A stretch of 64,000 bases of DNA from Bdellovibrionales bacterium (GTDB taxonomy: Bacteria > Bdellovibrionota > Bdellovibrionia > Bdellovibrionales > JAUICD01), in contig OZ253553.1 in NCBI GenBank assembly GCA_965262715.1, positions 1,120,001-1,184,000 of the forward strand, given 5' to 3'. The translations under genes and the position numbers were made by a program. Position 1 is the first letter of the stretch, and each line of letters starts with the position of its first letter. This document shows positions 41,544 to 58,919 of the stretch, piece by piece. Below the pieces are notes generated by a model that saw nothing but the letters and a program-made list of their open reading frames with translations, made no database searches and had not been told where the DNA came from.

Positions 41544-42492
41544 AATGGTGGACGCTGGCCTTCTATGGGCAAAAAACGTACTCAATCCTCAGTTTTCAAT
41601 GAAATCAACTATTTCTATCACTTCTTTACCTATTCCTGAAAGCGTACTCAAACAGAAATATCTCAAAAACTACCTCTCAATAAAAGAAATTGCAAAGGAA
41701 TTTTCGTGCTCAAAAACCAAAATCAGAGACCTACTTTTAAAATACAAAATGCCATTAAGAAAGCCTTCAAAATGCCATCAAAGATATGATAGTCGCACTT
41801 ACGGCAAGAAAAAGATAAATGGTAAAACGATAGATCACAAAAGAGAGTTAAAAACCATTGAAACCATTAAAAAGCTTTATGCTAAAGGTATCAATCCAAA
41901 TACAATAGCTAAGGTATTAAGCACTATGAAAATACCAACTAAACAGCATAAAAAAGAGTGGCATCATCACACAATTATCAATCTTCTTAAAAGAGAAAAT
42001 ATTTATAAACAAGAAAAATCAATAGCTTAGGAGGAAATTATGGAAACATTCATTAAAATTATTATAAACTTATCATTGATATTTGGATCAGGTTATTGTG
42101 CCAAAAAGCTTTGATGTCGAGGAAGCAACTGTTAAGAGGATTAAAAAGGCACTTTCATCATCAGAGCAATTTGCCAGAAAACTTACTGACACAAAACTGC
42201 CTTTCTAAAGTAGGATTTTAGTCTTGTCTAATAGAATAAAGTTTCTTTTGAAGTTCTTAACTTATAGATACACTTGTCTAAGCAAGATGAAGCGGGGAGG
42301 TTATGGGCTCTTAATATATTGAATTATCAAAGCGCATTTACAATAAGTCCCAGATAATTATTTGTATCATTGAGGTTCAATATCTTTGTAGGGAGCAAAC
42401 TGTAATGCCATAAGTTCTTTATGTCGATGAGTAACTTATAGATATTAAAAAAATAATTTTTTTACAAAAATAGTTTAAAATATTAAAAAAGC
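41544..42492 (+). repeat. ~950-bp direct repeat, module copy C
   Basis: Matches 36382..37307. Confidence 0.92.
41545..42030 (+). CDS. HTH + serine-recombinase-type DNA-binding (Recombinase) domain protein without a catalytic domain
   Basis: SIKEIAKEFSCSKTKI HTH; YG....G....E...I..I......G.....IA..L....IPT....W....I..LL.RE pattern. Confidence 0.7.
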   Translation: MVDAGLLWAKNVLNPQFSMKSTISITSLPIPESVLKQKYLKNYLSIKEIAKEFSCSKTKIRDLLLKYKMPLRKPSKCHQRYDSRTYGKKKINGKTIDHKRELKTIETIKKLYAKGINPNTIAKVLSTMKIPTKQHKKEWHHHTIINLLKRENIYKQEKSIA

Positions 42493-42685: not shown

Positions 42686-43342
42686 ATGGAAAAAATAATA
42701 TTAGCAAATAGTATGATAACTTTGATCACAGAAGATCAACTGAAACCTATCACTCATGATTTTCTAGTTCAAAAAGATATTGTTCCTAAAGACTTTGAAG
42801 TTATCAAAGAAAAAACCATTTATGCTTTTCCTATCAGTCAAATAAGCTATACAAATGGGTTTAGTATAATAATTGAACCAAATAGGACTTTATTTCAAAT
42901 ATTGAATATACCTAACTATAAAGAAAAAAGAGAGAAACCTTTAAATTTATTAAAGGAGATTTCATCAAAATATGTAACCCTTTTTAGAGAGATATTGGAG
43001 TGCAAGTTTATAGGTATTAATTTTGATTTTATAAAGGATGACTTACGTTTTGAAACTTTTGTTGAACAATCTATAAATCCAAACAGTTCATTTTTTAATT
43101 TTGAAGGTAAAAAAAGTGATATTCAAAAGATTGATATATCTTATAGCTTAAAAGGTAAAAAATTCAATATAACTATTAATAAAATTTCAAAAAGAAACAT
43201 TGAAACAAACACTGAAGATTTTATTACATTGTTTAAAATAAATATACATTATGATAGCAAATATGACGATAACGTAGTAAATATTATTAATGAAATGGAA
43301 GAAAACTATGAAAGATCATTAAAGTTTATAGGTGGAGTTTAA
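42686..43342 (+). CDS. Hypothetical protein, gene 1 of triad (TIGR04255-like?)
   Basis: Beta-rich; ISQISYTNGFSIIIEPNR, IGINF, KINIH; family call is weak. Confidence 0.6.
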   Translation: MEKIILANSMITLITEDQLKPITHDFLVQKDIVPKDFEVIKEKTIYAFPISQISYTNGFSIIIEPNRTLFQILNIPNYKEKREKPLNLLKEISSKYVTLFREILECKFIGINFDFIKDDLRFETFVEQSINPNSSFFNFEGKKSDIQKIDISYSLKGKKFNITINKISKRNIETNTEDFITLFKINIHYDSKYDDNVVNIINEMEENYERSLKFIGGV

Positions 43343-43992
43343 TGAATTCTAAAATATATCAAACAATAATAAACTCATTTCTAGAAAATAAATTTTCTAA
43401 TGAAGGAATTAATCCTAAAGGTTTTAAGGTTATCAAAGAAAACCCCTTTGATAGAGGCATGTTTTATAAAGCCCACTATCGCTGTATTGTCGATAAAGAA
43501 TCTATAAACGACTCTTTTAATGAAGATACAAAACCAAATATAAATATAATTTATAACAATAAAGAAAGAGAGTTAAGTAATATTTTGAAAGATTTAGATG
43601 AAGAATGTAAAGAAGAAGGTTATGAAGTTTTTTCTGATAAAGTAAAAAAGAATGCTTTCGAGATGTTAGATTTTGTAAAAAATAACTCTAAATATAATTG
43701 GAGTATCTATCCGACAGAAGATCAGGAAATTGCGATAAATTGTACACCAAAAAAAGGAAGAGGGTTATTGATACTTTGTGATTCAAGAGGGAGTATAGCT
43801 TATTTTAAAGTATTTGATGGAAGAAACACTAGATATAGATGTCAGAACATTAAAGACTTTCCTTTTGATCTATTGAAAACAGAGTTAAGTTTTTTAAATC
43901 CTTATTTATATGATAATAAAAAACTAATTGATACAAGAATACAACTCAAATCTTCTTATCTTATATTGAACAATGAATATCAAATTGCTTAA
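43342..43992 (+). CDS. Hypothetical protein, gene 2 of triad (antitoxin-like?)
   Basis: TAATG coupling to gene 1; C-terminal EEGYEVFS...A...L...SIYPTEDQEIAI...LLILCD..G domain. Confidence 0.6.
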   Translation: MNSKIYQTIINSFLENKFSNEGINPKGFKVIKENPFDRGMFYKAHYRCIVDKESINDSFNEDTKPNINIIYNNKERELSNILKDLDEECKEEGYEVFSDKVKKNAFEMLDFVKNNSKYNWSIYPTEDQEIAINCTPKKGRGLLILCDSRGSIAYFKVFDGRNTRYRCQNIKDFPFDLLKTELSFLNPYLYDNKKLIDTRIQLKSSYLILNNEYQIA

Positions 43993-44440
43993 TTATATAA
44001 ATGACGATGACAAACTTGGAAGATCTAGTTTTTCTAGAAAACAAGCAAGAAGAGCTACTTCAGGTAATATAGACCATAAGATTTTTCTTGACACAAAAGA
44101 CAGGCAAATTATTTCCGTAGATCGTCTTTTTTTGTCTTACTTAGAAAAACTGACAGAAATTCAAGACAAAAATGCTCAAAACCGATCTGAAATTGAAATC
44201 CAAAGATGGAAAAAAGGAGAACTAAAACAAAAAGACCAGCCTAAACAAAGAAGTTTTTATGGATGGGTTAGTTTAACAGCTTTAGATGCTCAACAAGATA
44301 GCAGACAGGTTAAATCAAGCCCTATTACAGAAAATCCTTATCATGCTAATATTATTCTACCTAAAGATACACATGATGCATATATATTACATACAAAATC
44401 ACTTGCAGCAAAATCTGAATGGGTTGAGAGATACAAATAA
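43973..44440 (+). CDS. Hypothetical protein, gene 3 of triad (ADP-ribosyltransferase-like toxin?)
   Basis: LGR...ISVDR...YGW..L...V..SP..ENPYHANI pattern; 20-bp overlap with gene 2. Confidence 0.55.
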   Translation: MNIKLLNYINDDDKLGRSSFSRKQARRATSGNIDHKIFLDTKDRQIISVDRLFLSYLEKLTEIQDKNAQNRSEIEIQRWKKGELKQKDQPKQRSFYGWVSLTALDAQQDSRQVKSSPITENPYHANIILPKDTHDAYILHTKSLAAKSEWVERYK

Positions 44441-45494: not shown

Positions 45495-45908
45495 CTACTT
45501 TTTAATAAATTTTCTTAAAAGTTGCATCCACCAAGCTGTGTTCTTTAATTTTCGTTGTATGTCGTTTTTTTTATCATGTCTATCTCTAATCCTTCCTATA
45601 TAGATTTCTTCTTCAGACCATTGCTTACACCACTCTGTCTTGCTTTCTTGGATCATATAATGGCTTTTACAAGGAAGTCTCCAGTTTCCTATTGATGGCC
45701 ATAGACTCACTGTTTCTCCATCATATTCAATTTTCCACTCGCTTCGTCCTAAAGGAAGACTTACTTCAATTCCACAACCACATGCGCATATGTGTTCAGT
45801 AAGGCGATGTTTAGTTGATATATACAACTCCCCTTCTTTCATTTTTTCCGGCATATTTTCTGTCCATATAGGATACCATGTCTTAGTTTTCATTTGATCT
45901 TTCTCCAT
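45495..45908 (-). CDS. DUF6527 family protein
   Basis: P..M.EGELYIS, HICACGCG.EV..PL, W, VSLWPSIGNW..PCKSHY.I. Confidence 0.9.
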   Translation of the reverse strand: MEKDQMKTKTWYPIWTENMPEKMKEGELYISTKHRLTEHICACGCGIEVSLPLGRSEWKIEYDGETVSLWPSIGNWRLPCKSHYMIQESKTEWCKQWSEEEIYIGRIRDRHDKKNDIQRKLKNTAWWMQLLRKFIKK

Positions 45909-45987
45909 ATCTAAGACAGATTGATATTCTTACTTGAAGTTTATATTCAATAGAATTTGTTTACTAAGGTGATGAGAATATTTCTTA

Positions 45988-47199
45988 TTACATGAATATT
46001 TTTCCAAAAGATATAGTATAATTTACTATATTATCACTCTTTTCTCGATCATTTCTATAGATTCCTTTTTTTATTTTCCACTCTATGAGAGCCAACGATG
46101 CTCCAAGCATATTTAACTCTGCTGTTTGAATGTTACTTCTATATATATCATTAACAAGCCTTTGCTCATTAGATTCTGAACCTACTTTTTTTTGTATATT
46201 TGGTACTTGATATTCTCGTTCTATTTTGACCATACCTCCGAGTTGATTATTATCTTTTCCTTCTACCTCTATTCCTATCCCTACACTCAAGTGAAATATT
46301 CCCATTTCATTACATTTTTCCTGAATTTCCCTTCGACTCTTTAAATTATCTACGGCAATAAAGACTGTTGTAAATTTTTTTAAGATATCTAGGTTGTTGC
46401 TATCAATTTTGTTTTTATATATATACAAGCCTTTTTTTCTTACATTTTTATAACGATTTTGATGCCATTCCACTTTTGTAGTATGAAGCTCGTTTTTATT
46501 TACTGCTCCAGCTAATCTAAATGCACTATCAGGTTCTATAATATCATCATCATATAAATGTAGTTCTTTAACATTTGTTTTTGCAAGTATATCAACTAAG
46601 TAAGATCCTGTGCCTCCTACTCCTATAACAGCGATTATTTCATCAGATATTTTGTCTTCTATTCCCTTTGTTCCATTGCGGTACAAACTTGTGTTCATAT
46701 ATGTAAAATTTGTATCCACATCAACTTCTGTTATTTTCCCAAGCTTTGAGGATTTTAAAATACCTGGAGTTTTACTTTCTGCATGAAAGCTAACTTCGTC
46801 TACATATGTTTTTATTTGTTCAAAATAGTCCTTGTATGATCGAAGAGTTCCTCCTTGTTTTGGCTTTCTTGACCATTTCATATATACAATAATTTCTTCT
46901 CCAAGCTGAAATCCATCAGGAAATTCTTCACAACACAATTCTTCTTTCATACTTTCTCCTTTAATAGTGTAAGGTATCTCACCGGTCCACCATACAGTAT
47001 GTTCTTTTGGTTGTTTTATTTGATTTGTAGAAGGATCAACACATAGACTTGTCACTATATCAGCTCTTTTGATTGTACTATCTTGTACTACATATAGTAT
47101 GTTTTTTGCGATTAAGTAAGCTCCGCGTATCTCTATATGATACCCTGCCTCTTTTAATCTTAACAAATCTTCACTATGACTTATCGGTGAATTTAACAT
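45988..47199 (-). CDS. DUF6791 (E2-like) + ThiF/E1-like adenylyltransferase fusion
   Basis: ISHSEDL.RL...GY.IEI N-terminus; IGVGGTGSY..D..AKT, D.D, AFR, FIAVD, NIQ.AELN. Confidence 0.9.
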   Translation of the reverse strand: MLNSPISHSEDLLRLKEAGYHIEIRGAYLIAKNILYVVQDSTIKRADIVTSLCVDPSTNQIKQPKEHTVWWTGEIPYTIKGESMKEELCCEEFPDGFQLGEEIIVYMKWSRKPKQGGTLRSYKDYFEQIKTYVDEVSFHAESKTPGILKSSKLGKITEVDVDTNFTYMNTSLYRNGTKGIEDKISDEIIAVIGVGGTGSYLVDILAKTNVKELHLYDDDIIEPDSAFRLAGAVNKNELHTTKVEWHQNRYKNVRKKGLYIYKNKIDSNNLDILKKFTTVFIAVDNLKSRREIQEKCNEMGIFHLSVGIGIEVEGKDNNQLGGMVKIEREYQVPNIQKKVGSESNEQRLVNDIYRSNIQTAELNMLGASLALIEWKIKKGIYRNDREKSDNIVNYTISFGKIFM

Positions 47200-47419
47200 C
47201 GAATTTCATTCCATCAACAATAGGTATTGAATCATTTTCCTTAAGGATTCCCTCTGGTTTTTCCTTTGGCCCATCTTTCCATGTGACATCATATTCATAG
47301 TCTGGCCCTTGTTTTCCATTGGGATAGGCATAATCTACTACTTTATTATAACTTATTTTGTCATCTAAAATTTTGTATTCTCTGCCTCTAATATAAATTA
47401 AGGTTTCCTGTTTATCCAT
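47174..47419 (-). CDS. Ubiquitin-like (Multi_ubiq) protein
   Basis: I.IRGRE......ISY..VV..AY...Y.VTW..GP...PEG.L....S..I.DGM.F.V..TDKS; GGAGG RBS before ATG 47419; overlaps the E2-E1 start. Confidence 0.88.
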   Translation of the reverse strand: MDKQETLIYIRGREYKILDDKISYNKVVDYAYPNGKQGPDYEYDVTWKDGPKEKPEGILKENDSIPIVDGMKFDVKFTDKS

Positions 47420-47869
47420 TTTGACCTCCATTTAAAATATAAGAATAAGATTAATCAGAGAGTGTCAAGGTGAAAAATAAGAGACACTTTTTGATGTTAA
47501 ATCTATATTTTACTTTAGATAAAATTAGTATATCAATTTATAGATGATAATTGAACATTTAAATTACAAAAAATAATTTAATATAAGTATTTGAAATTTT
47601 TGTTAATTTTTTTTTCATCATTTTATCATAATACATTATATAAAAAATGAAAACGTCCTTTTTTGATAAAAGAGGTGTTTTTAAATGAAATATTGACTTT
47701 ATATTCGTGAAACTGATATACTAAATTTATAAATCTAAAGTAGCATCAATGAAAATACATTGTCTTATAAAATCATAAATTTAAAAAAACATCATCAAAT
47801 GAGAAAGCTGTAAAATACAAGATCTGTTGTTTTTGTTGAAGACTCTTGTTATAAGTGGATTAAGTGGAT

Positions 47870-48199: not shown

Positions 48200-50101
48200 A
48201 TGTTAAAATTAGAAAAAGTCGTCTTAGAAAACTTTAGATGTTATAAAGAAAGAAGCGATCTTATAATAGATGATGAATTAACTGCTATTATCGGTTGTAA
48301 TGATGCAGGAAAGTCTTCTTTTTTTGACGCTCTTGAAATATTCTTTGAAAATCAAAAAATAGATCAAAATGATTTAAACATTGTATCTGATTCGTTAAAA
48401 GAAGTTTCAATTTCATGTGTATTTAGTAATTTACCAGATTCTATTCTAATTGATGCTGATCATAAAACCACTCTTAAAGGTGAATATTTATTAAACAAAA
48501 ATGAGATGTTAGAAATTAAAAAGATATATGATTGTAATTTCCAAAACCCTAAAATAAATACATTTGTAATATGCGAACATCCAACTCATGAAAATGCAAA
48601 AGATTTACTTAGTTTAAATAATAGTAAACTTAAAAAAAAAGCAGAACAAATTAGTGTTGATTTAGCAAATGTAAATAAAAGCATCAATGCAAGTATTCGA
48701 AAAGCAATACGAGAATCAATAAAAAATGATCTAAAAATTAAAACACAAGATATTTCCTTAGATAAAGATACTGGAAAGGATATATGGAATAAATTAAAAG
48801 AAGAGCTTCCAATATTCTTCCTTTTTAAAGTTGATCGAGAAACTACAGATCAAGATAGCGAAGCTCAGGATCCTATGAAAGCCGCAGTCAAAGAAGCCCT
48901 TAAATTTCAAAAAAACAAATTAGACGACCTCGCTGAGGAAGTCAAAAAAGAAGTTAAAAAAATTGCTGAAAAAACTGTAGATAAAATTAAAGAAATGGAT
49001 CCCTCACTCGCAAATACATTAAGTCCAAAATTTGATAACCCAAAATGGGATAGTGTATTTAAAATTAGATTAAATGCTGATGATGATATCCCTTTAAATA
49101 AAAGAGGTAGTGGTGTGCGCAGGCTTGTTCTTCTTAATTTCTTTATAGCAAAATCTGAAATTGAAGTTCCAGAGGAAAGAAATAAAGGAGTTATTTATGC
49201 TATTGAAGAGCCTGAAACCAATCAACATCCAAATAATCAAAAGAAAATAATAAATGCTTTTATGAGTTTGGCTGAAAAATCTGATTATCAAGTTTTATTA
49301 ACAACTCACACTCCATCTATGGCAAAACTATTACCAGATAAGAACCTAAGATTTATTGAAGTTAAAGAAAAATCAAGAATTATTCATAATACATCTAATG
49401 ATAGAAAGTTATTTGAATTAATAGCAAAAGCTTTAGGAGTTCTTCCTGATCATAATGTAAAACTATTTATAGCCGTAGAAGGAAAAAATGATATTTCTTT
49501 TTTAAACAACATATCATATCTCTTTAAAAAAGAAGACGAAGAAAGCTTTTTAGACCTTAAAGAATTAGAAAATAAAGGAGAGATTATATTTTTCCCTATT
49601 GGAGGAAGTAATTTAGCCTTATGGGCATCTCGTTTAAAAGAGCTTCAAGTGCCAGAGTTTCATTTATATGACCGAGATGTTAGTACAGAAGAGAAATTTC
49701 CAAAACAAAGTGAAATAGATAAGATTAATGAAAGAAGTGGTTGTAAAGCTTTTGTAACAAATAAAAAGGAGGCTGAAAATTATATTTCTAAAAAAACTAT
49801 TCAAAAAGAAGTTAAAGATAAATACAATATTAAAATTTCCTTAGAAATTGATGATTTTATAGATGTTCCTGAATGGGTAGCAAAGAAAATTTATGAAGAA
49901 AAAGAAGAAAAGATTTGGGATGATTTATCACCTGATAAGAAAAAGGGCAAAGAGCAAAAAATAAAGAATTGGTTGAATCGAGACGTAATAAAAAATATGA
50001 ATATAGGTGATTTAGATGAAAATACAAAGAAAGAAATAAGAACATGGTTAGATTCTATAAAACAACTTTATTGTTCACAAAATAGTCAAAATAAATATTA
50101 A
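48200..50101 (+). CDS. OLD-family ATP-dependent endonuclease (ABC ATPase + TOPRIM; GajA-like architecture)
   Basis: GCNDAGKS Walker A, RGSG signature, IEEPE, TTH, VEGKND, DRD, EAENY. Confidence 0.9.
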   Translation: MLKLEKVVLENFRCYKERSDLIIDDELTAIIGCNDAGKSSFFDALEIFFENQKIDQNDLNIVSDSLKEVSISCVFSNLPDSILIDADHKTTLKGEYLLNKNEMLEIKKIYDCNFQNPKINTFVICEHPTHENAKDLLSLNNSKLKKKAEQISVDLANVNKSINASIRKAIRESIKNDLKIKTQDISLDKDTGKDIWNKLKEELPIFFLFKVDRETTDQDSEAQDPMKAAVKEALKFQKNKLDDLAEEVKKEVKKIAEKTVDKIKEMDPSLANTLSPKFDNPKWDSVFKIRLNADDDIPLNKRGSGVRRLVLLNFFIAKSEIEVPEERNKGVIYAIEEPETNQHPNNQKKIINAFMSLAEKSDYQVLLTTHTPSMAKLLPDKNLRFIEVKEKSRIIHNTSNDRKLFELIAKALGVLPDHNVKLFIAVEGKNDISFLNNISYLFKKEDEESFLDLKELENKGEIIFFPIGGSNLALWASRLKELQVPEFHLYDRDVSTEEKFPKQSEIDKINERSGCKAFVTNKKEAENYISKKTIQKEVKDKYNIKISLEIDDFIDVPEWVAKKIYEEKEEKIWDDLSPDKKKGKEQKIKNWLNRDVIKNMNIGDLDENTKKEIRTWLDSIKQLYCSQNSQNKY

Positions 50102-50111
50102 TAGGAAGTAT

Positions 50112-50921
50112 ATGAATACCGTTTTAGATAAAAATAATTGGCAATGTCCTTACTGTGGAATTTTTCAAATCCTTCAATATGGTGAGAATTTGAAAACAAC
50201 AGAAGAATGCAATTTAACCTCCATGAGCAAATATAACGAAATTAGCGTTCGATTGTTTAGTATTTCCTGTCTGAATTGCAAAGAATTGACACTTAATATT
50301 GATTTAGAAAAAAAAATCTATCCAAAACCAAACCTTTACAGAAAAGGTATTATGGATTTCGATAGTGGCCCCTACTTTAAAAACCTGAAATCATGGTCTT
50401 TGATGCCTGATTCTAGAGCTAAACCTCAGCCAGATTATCTTCCTAAAAATGTAATAGAAAATTATAATGAAGCTTGTAAGATTGCTGATTCAAGCCCCAG
50501 AGCTTCTGCTATACTGTCTAGAAGATGTTTAGAGGTTATGATTAAAGACTTCTGTAAAGTTGAAGGCTCAGGAACTCTTTTTGAAAAGATAGAAGAAGTT
50601 CGAAAAAAGTCTATTGAAATCCAAGAAATCACAGAAGAATCAATAGATGCCATTGATCATATTAGAAAACAAGGTAATATAGCAGCACACATACAAAAGC
50701 CAACAAATTTATTGATCGACAACGTGAGTAAAAAAGATTCTGATTTATTGATCGAACTTTTAGAAATGTTATTTCAAGAGTGGTATATTGCCAGGTATAG
50801 AAGAAAAGAAAGATTGGCAAAAATCACAAAGGCAAAAGAAAAAACTAATTCTTTTGCAACCAAGGAACAAAAAAACAAAGAAGGATCAATCCATTCAAAC
50901 ATCTCAAAGCTAAACACCTAA
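50112..50921 (+). CDS. DUF4145 (HEPN) protein with N-terminal Zn ribbon
   Basis: CPYC/CLNC; YNEA...SPRAS..LSRRCLE; IRKQGNIAAH. Confidence 0.88.
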   Translation: MNTVLDKNNWQCPYCGIFQILQYGENLKTTEECNLTSMSKYNEISVRLFSISCLNCKELTLNIDLEKKIYPKPNLYRKGIMDFDSGPYFKNLKSWSLMPDSRAKPQPDYLPKNVIENYNEACKIADSSPRASAILSRRCLEVMIKDFCKVEGSGTLFEKIEEVRKKSIEIQEITEESIDAIDHIRKQGNIAAHIQKPTNLLIDNVSKKDSDLLIELLEMLFQEWYIARYRRKERLAKITKAKEKTNSFATKEQKNKEGSIHSNISKLNT

Positions 50922-50992
50922 AAATGAATAATGTATATTAAAAACTAGCTCTCAAAGAGATATAAAAATTGGAAAATTAAAGGAATTTTAAA

Positions 50993-51811
50993 ATGGCTCA
51001 ATTTCCTAGTTTTTCTGAAGCTCAAGTCAACTCTTTAGCTAAAATACTCGGTGAACTTATTACAGGAACACAAATTACAAATATCTTGAAAACTCATGAT
51101 ATTGAAGACAAATCAGGAGAATCCACTAAATGGAAAAGACTTTATTCGGTCTTTGTAGGGATTCAAAAAAGAGATGGATGCTCCAATAAGATCATAGAGC
51201 TTATTAGAACATCTTTTCTTGATCCTTCAGGTTTTGTTGAACGAAAAGAAGAATTTGAAAAATATCGTCAGAAGCTTAATCAAATACTGAGTTTTTCTGG
51301 ATTAGAATACGGTTCAAAGGGTCAATTTAGATACTGTTCTAAAGCTCAAACAATTGATGAGGCTGAAAAAAGATTTCAAACAATTCAATCAACCTTTAAA
51401 GAAAGAAATATTCATCCTGAAGTGTTAAAATATTGTCGTACTGAGCTTCTAAAAGACAACTTATTTCATGCTGTATTTGAAGCAACAAAAGGATTAGCAG
51501 AATGTCTTCGGGAAAAATCAGGAGTAAAAGATTTGGATGGAACTTCTCTTGTAGAGAAAGTCTTTTCAACTGAAAATCCTATTCTTGCATTTAATACATT
51601 AGAGACTCAAACAGAAAGAAGTGAACATAAAGGTTTTTCTTCTTTATTAAAAGGATGTTTTTCTATGGTTAGAAATCCAATAGCCCATCAACCAAAGGTT
51701 CTATGGAAAAATGAAGATGATATCATAGATTATTTTTCTCTCATTTCATTGCTCCATAGGAAACTTGATAATTGTGTCCCAACACAAATGCGGAAAAATC
51801 ATGGAAGGTAA
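50993..51811 (+). CDS. TIGR02391 family HEPN protein
   Basis: STKWKRL, IHPEV, FHAVFEATK, DG..LV..VF, RNPIAH (RxxxxH). Confidence 0.88.
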   Translation: MAQFPSFSEAQVNSLAKILGELITGTQITNILKTHDIEDKSGESTKWKRLYSVFVGIQKRDGCSNKIIELIRTSFLDPSGFVERKEEFEKYRQKLNQILSFSGLEYGSKGQFRYCSKAQTIDEAEKRFQTIQSTFKERNIHPEVLKYCRTELLKDNLFHAVFEATKGLAECLREKSGVKDLDGTSLVEKVFSTENPILAFNTLETQTERSEHKGFSSLLKGCFSMVRNPIAHQPKVLWKNEDDIIDYFSLISLLHRKLDNCVPTQMRKNHGR

Positions 51812-51914
51812 GTTTAACTCTTATTTAAGATATAAAAATTCAAGCTTCCAAAAAAGGCTAACATAGGCAATTACACAATTTTTATTACAGAGCCAAATTA
51901 ATAGAATATAACAA

Positions 51915-52556
51915 ATGAAGAAATATAATAGAAAAACTTTTTTTGAAAACAAAAAATGTCTTGAGTATCTAAAACAATTTAGACAAATGGTTGAGCATTA
52001 TTCAAAAAAAATAGAGCTAAGTTTATTTGAATTAGGTAGTTTACAAGTAGAAAACTTTAGACAATATGAAGAATATTGTATGAGAAAACCTGTTATAAAT
52101 GAAAATGATTTAAAAAATCTTCGTAAGCAGATCAATGAAAGATTAGAACCCATTCGTCAAATTATTATTGATTCAGAAATAAATCCACTTATTACATATT
52201 CGCCTCCTTTATTTACTGGTGTAGTTGATAAACGAATAATTGATCTTTTAGACAATATATTCAATTTAGGCACAAAAAAAATCTCATATAATTTTGTTCT
52301 TGACTATATAGACCGAGCCATAGGTGTTTACAAAAATGATCAAAGAGCATCTTTAATAAGGACCTTTAATCCTATTTTTTGGATTAAAGAACTTCTTGAA
52401 TCTGTTGTCGGTATTCCTTTTTATTTCTTAAAAAAGTCAGGATTCAGTAATAATTTAGAAGAAACTTTTTTCGCAAAAATCATAAAATTTGTAATATATC
52501 TTATTTCATTAATATCAGGAGCTTGGTTTATTATAGATAAGCTTTTAAGAATGTAA
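51915..52556 (+). CDS. Hypothetical protein with C-terminal TM helix
   Basis: 213 aa; hydrophobic end FVIYLISLISGAWFII. Confidence 0.7.
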   Translation: MKKYNRKTFFENKKCLEYLKQFRQMVEHYSKKIELSLFELGSLQVENFRQYEEYCMRKPVINENDLKNLRKQINERLEPIRQIIIDSEINPLITYSPPLFTGVVDKRIIDLLDNIFNLGTKKISYNFVLDYIDRAIGVYKNDQRASLIRTFNPIFWIKELLESVVGIPFYFLKKSGFSNNLEETFFAKIIKFVIYLISLISGAWFIIDKLLRM

Positions 52557-52612
52557 TTAACTTGAATTTATTGTAACGATTCAAATATATAATTGAACAG
52601 AGAATAGAAAGA

Positions 52613-54661
52613 ATGAATATAGAAATAGAATTTAATTCTACAATAAGAGAATTAGCTGAAAAAAGTCAAGAGATGGCTGCTAAAGATACTTCTCCTTTGG
52701 TTTGCTTAGTAGCCGGTCCTGGAACAGGAAAATCAAAAGTAATAGAACAAAGAGTTTTGTATTTGTTAAAAAAGGAAGTAAATGCTAATAACATTTTTGC
52801 AGTATCCTATACTCGTGCCTCTGCTAATGATTTAAAAGATCGTGTTTATAATTATTGTAAGGAAAAAAAATACAATAATGTCAATGGTGTAGGTATTTCA
52901 ACTCTCCATTCACTCGCTTTAAAAATACTTAAAATATCTGGTGTTTTTTTAAATTTTCCAGTTGATCCAAAAGTATTGGATGACTGGGAAATAGAAAATA
53001 TTTTTGATCGAGAGTTTTCAGAATTAAGTCAGTATAGTAAACGACATGCAAGCAAGATAAGAAAATATCATGAATCAATTTGGAATATAGAAGATGCAGG
53101 CGACTATTCTACATCTCATAATAATATTTCTATTACTATAACTGAAAAAGAAAAAAGAGTTTTTGAGCAATTTTACCTTTACTGGATATACTTATATGCA
53201 GCAATTTTACCGGGTGAAATTATTCGTTCTTGTGTAAAAAAAATCGAAAATAACCTTTCATGTATTAAATCTTATTTAAATATTTCTCATTTAATTATTG
53301 ATGAGTTTCAAGATTTAAATCCGATGGATTTAAAATTCATAGACCTAATCATTAAATCAGGTATTAATGTTTTTGTTGCTGGAGATGATGATCAAAGTAT
53401 CTATAGTTTTCGACACGCATCACCTATTGGACTACAAAATTTTACTCAAAGACCTTCTGCTGAATTACATATTCTTAAGCACTGTTTCAGGTGTCCTTCT
53501 GTTATTTTAAATTCTGCTGTTGCTTTAATTGAAAGATATGGAGGGCAAAATCGGATAAAAAAGCAATACATTTCAATGTATGACAGTTCTAGTCCTAAGC
53601 TTAATGGAATAGTAAAATTATGGAAATTTAAAGGTTATAAGAAAGAAGCAGAAGGTATAGCGAAGTCATGTAAAAAATTGAAAGAAGCAGGTTTGTCTTA
53701 CGATTCAATTCTTGTATTAGTAGCAAATACTCAAATGCAACTTAAAGCAATTAAAGAAGCTTTTAATGATTATAAAATAAAGTACAACTCCCCTAAAGAG
53801 AAAGATTTTCAAGATACAAAAATTGGCAGAGGTCTACTAAGTTTATTGAGACTTGTTGCAACTAATGAAGCTAGAAAAACAGATAAGAGACAAGATGATT
53901 ATATAGCTTTAAGATATATTGTTAAGAATAAAAAAGGTGTAGGTAAAGAAACATTTAATAAAATTGTTAAAACTATTATCTCAAATCAGCTAAATTTTAG
54001 AAATATTTTTGAAAATAGTTTATCTGATAATAAGTTTGATAGAAAAGAAATCAAAGTTATTTTCGCTATTCGTAAATATTTAAAAAATATAGATAGCTGG
54101 CGAAGTGCTGATACAATTGAAGAAAAACGAAATGATATAAAAAATTTCTTATCTCTAACAAACTTTAAACCAATTGAAGTTCAAGAACTTAATGAATTTT
54201 TAGATAGTTTACCTCAACAAGCAAATTTTCAAGAACTTAAAGCTTATATGGAAGCTGATACTTTGAATAATAAAAAAATAGCTGTTAAACATATTTATGA
54301 AAGGCTTGGAATTCAAGATAATATTGATACACCTCAAACAGAAGCCGTTAAAATTATGACCTTACACGGATGTAAGGGTTTATCTGGAGATGTTGTTTTT
54401 ATACCTGGGTTAGAAAAAGGATTATTACCGAATGACAAACAAGTTAATAATGATAAGATAAAAGAAGGAGCAAGAATGCTTTTTGTTGGAATAACAAGAG
54501 CAAAACGTTGTTGTGTTTTGAGTTACTCCACTAAGCGTTGGATATATACAGAGCTAAAAACTCAAGAGGCTTCTGAATATATTTCACACTTAAATAATCA
54601 ATTCGAAGATGGAGATATATTAAGTAAAATTGAATGTGAGAAAATAATAAGTATAATTTGA
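52613..54661 (+). CDS. UvrD/PcrA-like SF1 helicase (GajB-like)
   Basis: AGPGTGKS, STLHS, IDEFQD, GDDDQSIYSFR, FRCP, MTLHGCKGL, FVGITRAK. Confidence 0.93.
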   Translation: MNIEIEFNSTIRELAEKSQEMAAKDTSPLVCLVAGPGTGKSKVIEQRVLYLLKKEVNANNIFAVSYTRASANDLKDRVYNYCKEKKYNNVNGVGISTLHSLALKILKISGVFLNFPVDPKVLDDWEIENIFDREFSELSQYSKRHASKIRKYHESIWNIEDAGDYSTSHNNISITITEKEKRVFEQFYLYWIYLYAAILPGEIIRSCVKKIENNLSCIKSYLNISHLIIDEFQDLNPMDLKFIDLIIKSGINVFVAGDDDQSIYSFRHASPIGLQNFTQRPSAELHILKHCFRCPSVILNSAVALIERYGGQNRIKKQYISMYDSSSPKLNGIVKLWKFKGYKKEAEGIAKSCKKLKEAGLSYDSILVLVANTQMQLKAIKEAFNDYKIKYNSPKEKDFQDTKIGRGLLSLLRLVATNEARKTDKRQDDYIALRYIVKNKKGVGKETFNKIVKTIISNQLNFRNIFENSLSDNKFDRKEIKVIFAIRKYLKNIDSWRSADTIEEKRNDIKNFLSLTNFKPIEVQELNEFLDSLPQQANFQELKAYMEADTLNNKKIAVKHIYERLGIQDNIDTPQTEAVKIMTLHGCKGLSGDVVFIPGLEKGLLPNDKQVNNDKIKEGARMLFVGITRAKRCCVLSYSTKRWIYTELKTQEASEYISHLNNQFEDGDILSKIECEKIISII

Positions 54662-58018: not shown

Positions 58019-58486
58019 ATGAAGTTCAACACATCTTTTTTACTTATTTTAATTTCGATTACAATTGCTATAATGTTTATATATATTGGATCAAATCGTC
58101 AATTGACTACATTGGAAAATGTATTATTTCAGTTGATTATATTATCTATTGGCTTAATAGGATCATTTCTTTTTGGAAGAGTTAAGTCTAAAGAAATTGA
58201 TAAACCACGTCTAAGATCCGCTTTTCGTAGACTTATTTCTCTTTATCGAAGTCTTTCTCGTATGGCTTTTATTGTTAGTGAAAATCAAGAACGAGGAGGA
58301 CAAGAAGACAAAACAACACTTTTAAAAATTGAATCAATAATTACAGAACAAATATTTGCTGTCGATGATGCAATGTTAGATTGGTATGATATAACACCAG
58401 AAGAAGTTAAAGATTTATATAAGTCTAAAAATTTATTTTTTGATGATACTTTAAGACAAACCAAGAGGGAGTCAGATAGTGAATGA
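58019..58486 (+). CDS. Two-TM membrane protein inserted in the hsd operon
   Basis: Two N-terminal TM helices plus a helical soluble tail. Confidence 0.75.
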   Translation: MKFNTSFLLILISITIAIMFIYIGSNRQLTTLENVLFQLIILSIGLIGSFLFGRVKSKEIDKPRLRSAFRRLISLYRSLSRMAFIVSENQERGGQEDKTTLLKIESIITEQIFAVDDAMLDWYDITPEEVKDLYKSKNLFFDDTLRQTKRESDSE

Positions 58487-58919
58487 CCTTATTCGAGGCA
58501 AGGTTGCTAAAATTCTGAACTCTCGTGAGGTGGCTATAAATATTGGTTCTCATCACGGAGTGAGAGAAGGAATGTTATTTGATATTCTTGACCTTAGTGG
58601 CAAAAATATCATAGACCCTGACACAGAAGAAAACTTAGGTTCAATTGAAAGGCCAAAAGTGAGAGTTCAAGTCAAACATATAAGAGATAATTTTTCTATT
58701 GCCTCAACATTTAAAAAAAATGAGATAAATATTGGAGGTAAAGGAGGTGGCTTTGCCTTGTTATCTAAAGCATTTCTTCCACCAAAATGGGTTACCAAGT
58801 ATGAAACATTAAAAACAGCAGATCAAACATGGGAATCTATTACAGAGGATCAGAGCTATATTAAGATTGGAGACCCCATAATTCAAGTTTTTGAAGACAA
58901 TAAAGAAAAGGTTAAGTGA
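58479..58919 (+). CDS. FlgT-C-like small beta-barrel protein inserted in the hsd operon
   Basis: GKVAKI....VAINIG...GV.EGM.F.I...IIDPDT.E.LG pattern; overlaps the previous gene. Confidence 0.65.
   Translation: MNDLIRGKVAKILNSREVAINIGSHHGVREGMLFDILDLSGKNIIDPDTEENLGSIERPKVRVQVKHIRDNFSIASTFKKNEINIGGKGGGFALLSKAFLPPKWVTKYETLKTADQTWESITEDQSYIKIGDPIIQVFEDNKEKVK

Follow-up and report, generated by a model that had tools for sequence, protein, structure and literature searches.

We analysed a 64,000-nt stretch of the Bdellovibrionales contig OZ253553.1 (hereafter, the window), which carries three co-oriented minus-strand genes, none of them with internal stops, and an overlap between the first two:

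47174..47431, minus strand: bubA, a single beta-grasp ubiquitin-like protein (Ubl) of 85 aa counted from the first ATG, ending in FTDKS-stop; Pfam PF14452 Multi_ubiq, E 1.2e-5 (a second ATG at 47419 gives 81 aa).
45988..47199, minus strand: bubBD, 403 aa; Pfam DUF6791, E 1.3e-26, and ThiF, E 6.3e-16.
45495..45908, minus strand: bubE, 137 aa; Pfam PF20137 DUF6527, E 2.1e-21.
47174..47199, minus strand: bubA/bubBD overlap, 26 nt, in which the terminal TDKS-stop of BubA is co-encoded with the BubBD start MLNSPISHS in the +1 frame.

These full-length ORFs and their Pfam domains agree with a preliminary description of an intact three-gene operon at 45495..47470, whose start stands and whose end precedes the first ATG (47431) by 39 nt. 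Gene order and Pfam content are those of Type II Bub, defined as BubA (the Ubl), BubBD (an E2-E1 fusion) and BubE (with DUF6527) and as a rule lacking a JAB peptidase, with ~400 operons on record (Ye et al., PMC11601596). The operon at 45495-47470 is therefore an intact copy of a system already described (PMC11601596), also known as the 6E.2 or DUF6527 operon (PMC11601596; PMC11601603) and recorded earlier, by Iyer et al. (2006), as "6e" with a Cys-less E2. Searches for Prok-JAB (PF14464), which returned matches in 8 of 14 control genomes, found none in the operon or in the 92.7%-complete genome, as the preliminary description had noted for the operon. Likewise, its claim of a ThiF domain devoid of CxxC zinc motifs is accurate: BubBD has only four cysteines in 403 aa (53, 89, 90 and 296) and no CxxC. 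Neither absence sets this copy apart, since both are normal for Type II Bub.

The window operon shares with the Type II Bub of E. coli ZDHYS365 (BubA WP_053069300.1, PDB 9CD2; BubBD WP_063617865.1; BubE WP_074146335.1; PMC11601596 and PMC11601603) the three genes and their order, the E2-E1 fusion, the lack of JAB, the TDKS end, the E2 Ser, the E1 Arg, the crossover Tyr, and the BubE Ser-His dyad with four Cys. With the Type I Bub of Citrobacter sp. RHBSTW-00271 (BubAB, BubCD and BubE; PDB 9EA4, 9EA5, 9EA8, 9EAE and 9EAV) it has in common a DUF6527 protease and, by analogy, probably the Tyr/Ser oxyester chemistry. The Citrobacter Ubl, however, is made as one protein with E2 and is cleaved after Gly229 by a JAB that is itself joined to E1, whereas in the window a Ser-ended Ubl with its own stop and the E2 are encoded by separate, overlapping genes, without JAB. 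Bil and the Cap2 of Type II CBASS resemble the operon in being E1/E2-type conjugation genes in defence islands, Cap2 also as an E2-E1 fusion; those systems rely on catalytic cysteines and on a JAB peptidase and were shown to be anti-phage (PMC11601596). On the other hand, the window operon contains no separate E2, JAB or E1 with Cys domain, as Bil (type I/II) would, and no CD-NTase; neither a CD-NTase nor a Cap3 JAB, the marks of Type II CBASS, was found among the scanned neighbour genes. No CapH/P, WYL or CapK/S regulator was found adjoining the operon; such neighbours occur at two loci of the long-branch subclade described below, as a WYL gene (L011) and as an HTH gene with an IrrE-like peptidase (L013).

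A search of PDB sequences with BubA retrieved the E. coli ZDHYS365 BubA (9CD2) as sole match, with an alignment extending through TDKS. The AF2 model of the window protein (pLDDT 90.6) superimposed on 9CD2 with TM 0.85-0.86 and rmsd 1.5-1.6 A, which predicts a beta-grasp fold like that of E. coli BubA. The latter has three beta-grasp domains and the window protein one; single-domain Ubls make up 218 (40%) of the Type I/II Bub Ubls catalogued in PMC11601603. Consistently with the single-domain Ubl without C-terminal Gly of the preliminary description, the protein ends in FTDKS and has its final Gly at position 74 of 85, 11 residues from the C-terminus. As the terminal beta-strand of the model spans residues 71-79 of 81, a protein shortened to that Gly would lose part of its fold, and processing of BubA to a Gly end thus appears implausible from both sequence and model. 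E. coli BubA, which conjugates in vitro, also ends in TDKS (PMC11601596, Table S2).

To place this end in the family, we aligned the Ubl termini. In 84 non-self close homologues, 51-86% identical to window BubA, the protein closes with TDKS (72), TDRS (10), TDRA (1) or an unrelated tail (1), that is, with Ser in 82/84 and with Gly in 0/84. A wider sample comprised 38 loci from taxa including Gamma- and Alphaproteobacteria, Bacteroidota, Bacillota, Actinomycetota, Cyanobacteriota and Bdellovibrionota, 11 of them plasmid loci hand-picked for taxonomic spread out of 127 matching records. Three loci had no junction and five junctions were duplicates, leaving 30 distinct ones, the window's own included, and T-x-[K/R/Q]-S-stop closed BubA in every one (TDKS 15, TGQS 3, TDRS 3, TNRS 3, TIQS 2, TSRS 2, TYKS 1, TVQS 1). 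On these alignments the Ser C-terminus is the family norm for Type II BubA, not the peculiarity of one copy for which it had been taken at first. The initial proposal that this terminus is activated very likely holds, and directly so, with the conjugating, TDKS-ended E. coli BubA as precedent.

The arrangement of the junction itself proved equally constant. In all 30 distinct junctions, drawn from the 35 junction-bearing loci of the 38, bubBD opens in the +1 frame, its start 26 nt ahead of where the bubA stop ends, and public annotations of relatives show the identical offset. The terminal Ser codon of bubA is TCG in 13, TCA in 12 and TCT in 5 of the 30, a choice that turns BubBD residue 8 into Arg, His or Leu, respectively. 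Since this BubBD residue varies while Ser stays, Ser is presumably selected through BubA rather than through BubBD. The overlap likely couples translation of tag and enzyme. A programmed frameshift yielding a BubA-BubBD fusion is unsupported: the BubBD frame is closed at most two codons upstream of its start in 16/30 junctions, and no shared slippery motif was visible by eye across the 30; these observations leave room for a frameshift within the 26-nt overlap itself. We found no mention of the Ser end or of the 26-nt overlap in preprint PMC11601596 or in the available part of PMC11601603; either may already be in print.

BubBD consists of an E2 domain (DUF6791, approximately residues 1-155) followed by a ThiF-like E1 adenylation domain (approximately 160-403). 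NCBIfam PRK06153 models matched it below all their cut-offs, and PADLOC E1-E2 models weakly and over the E1 part only (best E 1.9e-9). A structural model (pLDDT 82.4, pTM 0.58, with pLDDT <50 at the crossover loop 336-352) found Citrobacter BubCD as best match in VIA-align (Z 23.6, rmsd 3.2 A over 212 residues), in a near tie with MoeB (Z 22.6), and at ranks 1-4 in Foldseek. Matches to the E1 domain took up the searches with the whole model, so that the fold result, with BubCD as closest solved structure, covers E1 only; an E2-domain profile gave no meaningful match among PDB sequences (best E 0.82). The residues on which we focused are as follows:

46999..47001, minus strand: His67, likely the His that assists at the E2 active site, matching E. 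coli H66 by eye.
46921..46935, minus strand: Cys89-Cys90..Phe93, an insert of the subclade described below, with conserved Cys90.
46864..46872, minus strand: Ser110-Arg-Lys112, the E2 nucleophile motif, matching E. coli S106/K108.
46516..46518, minus strand: Arg228, the adenylation-site Arg (E. coli R219), within DSAFR rather than HNAFR.
46141..46143, minus strand: Tyr353, the crossover-loop Tyr, sharing its motif with E. coli Y342 (Citrobacter Y370).

The E. coli positions were mapped onto the window by counting by eye from Table S2 of PMC11601596, and we infer H66 to be the His meant in that work. Published data place the E2 nucleophile at the Ser of a W/F-S-x-K motif (PMC11601596). Incubation of E. 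coli BubA and BubBD with ATP, without protease, resulted in a BubA-BubA conjugate that was lost in the R219A, Y342F and S106A mutants and retained on K108 mutation (PMC11601596); this conjugate is called "apparent" from the gel, and the preprint leaves its linkage unmapped to the Ser end (PMC11601596).

We aligned window BubBD with 119 close homologues (from the best 120 of 243 hits) and 24 canonical loci of <40% identity, leaving out its own locus, duplicates and four fragments. His67, Arg228 and Tyr353 were each invariant in the 119 close (best 120 of 243) and the 24 canonical homologues. Ser110 was likewise present in 119/119, and in 22/24 canonical loci, the other two having Cys, while Lys112 was found in 114/119 and 19/24, respectively. 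The E2 domain thus carries the Ser nucleophile with Lys (S110, K112) and His (H67) and no canonical Cys, and the E1 domain the crossover Tyr (Y353) and the adenylation Arg (R228). The search for a catalytic Cys by homologue alignment proposed in the preliminary description accordingly ended on a conserved nucleophile column that is Ser110. The same description had pointed to GEIPY (BubBD residues 73-77) as standing where homologues have PC. Column 77 is indeed Cys in 18 of the 24 canonical loci (H 4, Y 1, F 1), yet it is H (52), Y (47) or F (20) among the 119 close homologues (best 120 of 243). The idea that GEIPY marks a lost catalytic Cys was rejected, as the column is never Cys in the 119 and non-Cys in 6/24 canonical loci; it is variable, and its Cys is therefore not the nucleophile. 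The CC pair remarked upon there is present (residues 89-90), 12-13 residues after Y77 instead of 11, and only C90 is conserved.

A quick tree of BubBD (50 rows), flagged with a long-branch warning, placed the window protein and 25 others together on a single long branch (length 1.5, SH-aLRT 100). This subclade of 119+ mostly metagenomic proteins is distinguished by HTVWWTG and by a Cys90/Trp93 insert absent from canonical members, to which the window protein is ~30% identical. It is through this long-branch membership, these subclade motifs, DSAFR and the lack of a detected adjoining regulator that the window differs from E. coli ZDHYS365. Among the 119 subclade proteins (best 120 of 243 hits), C90 occurs in 116, C89 in 18 and W93 in all, with F93 in the window; column 93 is a gap in 24/24 canonical loci.

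Such conservation, together with the absence of Cys90 from the five commonest residues at that position in the 24 canonical loci, could suggest a subclade chemistry in which Cys90 carries a thioester beside or instead of Ser110. The model places it at the start of a beta-hairpin (89-100/103-110) whose second strand ends at S110. However, none of the 119 close homologues (best 120 of 243) departs from S110 or Y353, three subclade proteins dispense with Cys90 (I, I and H), and a buried structural Cys accounts equally well for its conservation, which leaves a changed chemistry decidedly unlikely. A broader version, in which the subclade would be a chemically distinct Bub with a Ser-ended tag, with Cys90 as an additional thioester carrier or as a redox switch, and with targets of another class, is also quite unlikely; were it true, the relay would mix oxyesters and thioesters, and the 26-nt overlap would tie tag and enzyme to each other as they evolve.

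Some features of the window copy could alternatively mean that this Bub is weakened or in decay and its ATP site impaired, namely the change of HNAFR to DSAFR, the lack of a detected adjoining regulator, and three private changes, W93F, R164N and A368S, in columns 98-100% conserved among close homologues (best 120 of 243). Residue 225 is N in 24/24 canonical loci, S in the window and 12/119 close homologues, and T in 5/119 (best 120 of 243). Nonetheless, Ser225 is common to the three closest homologues among the matches listed, the three frames are full length, and comparison with the orthologues of a single Bdellovibrionales MAG locus (L001), by simple counting on this one pair, gave dN/dS of 0.23 for bubA, 0.22 for bubBD and 0.14 for bubE at dS 0.66-1.06. 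We hence regard decay, a possibility contemplated from the beginning, as very unlikely; judged from these substitution rates and intact frames, the operon is under purifying selection and the copy is not degenerate.

BubE displays the motifs H39-x-C41-x-C43-G-C45 and C80-K-S-H83, as recognized beforehand (H-x-C-x-CGC and C-x-SH), and its homologues favour a start at Met6 (45893). Among 119 homologues (from the best 120 of 199 listed), S72, C80 and H83 are invariant and C41/C43/C45 occur in 118, the remaining one showing a gap. E. coli BubE has predicted zinc cysteines C34/C36/C38/C73 and a dyad S65/H76 (PMC11601596). By sequence correspondence, C41/C43/C45/C80 match this predicted structural zinc site and S72/H83 are the predicted protease dyad, so that window BubE carries both a Ser-His dyad and a C4 site; a search against PDB sequences gave no match (best E 0.27). 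Experimentally, Citrobacter BubE showed weak Ser-His protease activity and stripped conjugates in cells in a Ser/His-dependent manner (PMC11601596), and Type II BubE is known in that preprint from modelling, the assays having been performed with the Citrobacter protein. The preliminary description had left DUF6527 as peptidase, ligase or thiol carrier; the peptidase agrees with these data, and the four Cys, which fit the predicted zinc site, argue against the other two roles.

A related alternative holds that BubA is a pro-protein trimmed by BubE, or that BubE serves the forward pathway as ligase or thiol carrier. The lack of a detected JAB in the genome and the cleavage of a BubA-GFP fusion by BubE (PMC11601596) are compatible with it. 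Yet E. coli BubA is conjugated without BubE, Citrobacter BubE removes conjugates via its Ser and His (PMC11601596), window BubA has neither residues past the conserved Ser nor a Gly near its end, and the four Cys of BubE correspond to the predicted zinc site. We consider this alternative highly improbable.

Collectively, every residue required in characterized systems is retained in the window: R228 and Y353 in E1, H67 and S110 in E2, and S72/H83 plus four Cys in BubE. From sequence, models and analogy to these systems, the operon very probably encodes an intact Type II Bub in which BubBD activates a Ser-ended BubA, a Tyr353/Ser110 oxyester relay passes it on to Lys, and BubE deconjugates it. 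In the steps that we infer for this copy, the same reaction as in E. coli would take place: BubBD would adenylate the Ser carboxylate of BubA with ATP, without trimming; the tag would move to Tyr353 and then to Ser110, each time as an oxyester; the Ser110-borne tag would be ligated to a target lysine through an isopeptide bond; and BubE would remove it from targets. Translational coupling by the overlap would be a further trait of this copy. The non-canonical conjugation chemistry surmised in the preliminary description is thus borne out, the Tyr/Ser oxyester residues being kept and no catalytic Cys needed; its statement that no mechanism was known is superseded by the published Tyr and Ser oxyester relay and BubE Ser-His protease (PMC11601596).

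The surroundings of the operon are rich in defence genes. They include an Eco57I-like methylase/RM gene, an OLD/GajA-like ATPase, a PD-T7-4-like DUF4145 gene, another gene that is PD-Lambda-3B-like, a UvrD/GajB-like helicase and all genes of a type I RM system; this content makes the "defence island" label of the preliminary description a fair one. At 0.30-0.31, the GC content of the 44-48 kb region resembles that of the rest of the window, a promoter scan gave no signal (19 sites versus 20.3 expected), and no tRNA was found in the 64-kb window. On the plus strand, 48200-54661 encodes the OLD/GajA-like ATPase (48200-50101) and the UvrD/GajB-like helicase (52613-54661) with three genes between, one DUF4145/PD-T7-4-like, one TIGR02391/PD-Lambda-3B-like and one without assignment; this may be a Gabija-like pair into which defence genes were inserted. 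Three co-oriented plus-strand genes of 218, 216 and 155 aa at 42686-44440, the last two junctions overlapping, lie in the lowest-GC part of the window (0.25) and had no Pfam, PADLOC or NCBIfam match. At 58019-58919, two small inserted plus-strand ORFs of 155 and 146 aa, the latter with a FlgT_C-like match, separate the methylase gene of the type I RM system from its specificity gene. Both the window (41545-42030, plus) and L001 (6894-7757, minus) have a short recombinase/HTH-type ORF downstream of bubE and on the strand opposite to it, which hints at related integrative elements.

Distribution of the operon is patchy (3/61 related genomes and 5/401 phylum genomes, its own counted), and the same-genus copy (L002) is of the canonical type on the tree, a picture that fits separate horizontal gains. 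tblastn with BubBD gave no match among 50,697 phage genome records; in viral contigs, the subclade BubBD profile detected one locus and the Cys-for-Ser variant none. That variant was seen in three Type II-like loci on metagenome contigs (L020:4001-5233, L021:1673-2905 and L022:65-1297, the latter two of 69% GC), which combine a TDKS/TDRS Ubl and the 26-nt overlap with Cys in the E2 catalytic Ser column (HTFCVRP, HTFCIKP). The crossover Tyr is retained in L020 and L021, L022 is broken into two frames, and phmmer found no bubE in any of the three, which may represent a natural Tyr-oxyester to Cys-thioester variant without deconjugase. In a Methylomonas plasmid (NZ_CP014361.1; L030:2679-4103), an IS256 transposase follows bubBD and only a weak bubE match is found there, so that bubE appears interrupted in that sequence.

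As for function, a role in defence or stress response is likeliest from genomic context. The probably anti-phage role initially put forward agrees with the defence-rich setting but not with the finding that no Bub operon protected E. coli against phage (PMC11601596), restated in a 2026 preprint from the same group. As a system, the operon is a further copy of a catalogued family with published chemistry and adds little; its compact single-domain form makes it a reasonable test case, with no special handle on the Bub target or role. The facts worth recording concern the family as a whole: Type II BubA is Ser-ended, and the 26 nt that specify this end always specify the start of its enzyme too. 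A conserved Ser end of this kind would mean that the E1 of Type II Bub activates a non-glycine Ubl end without processing.
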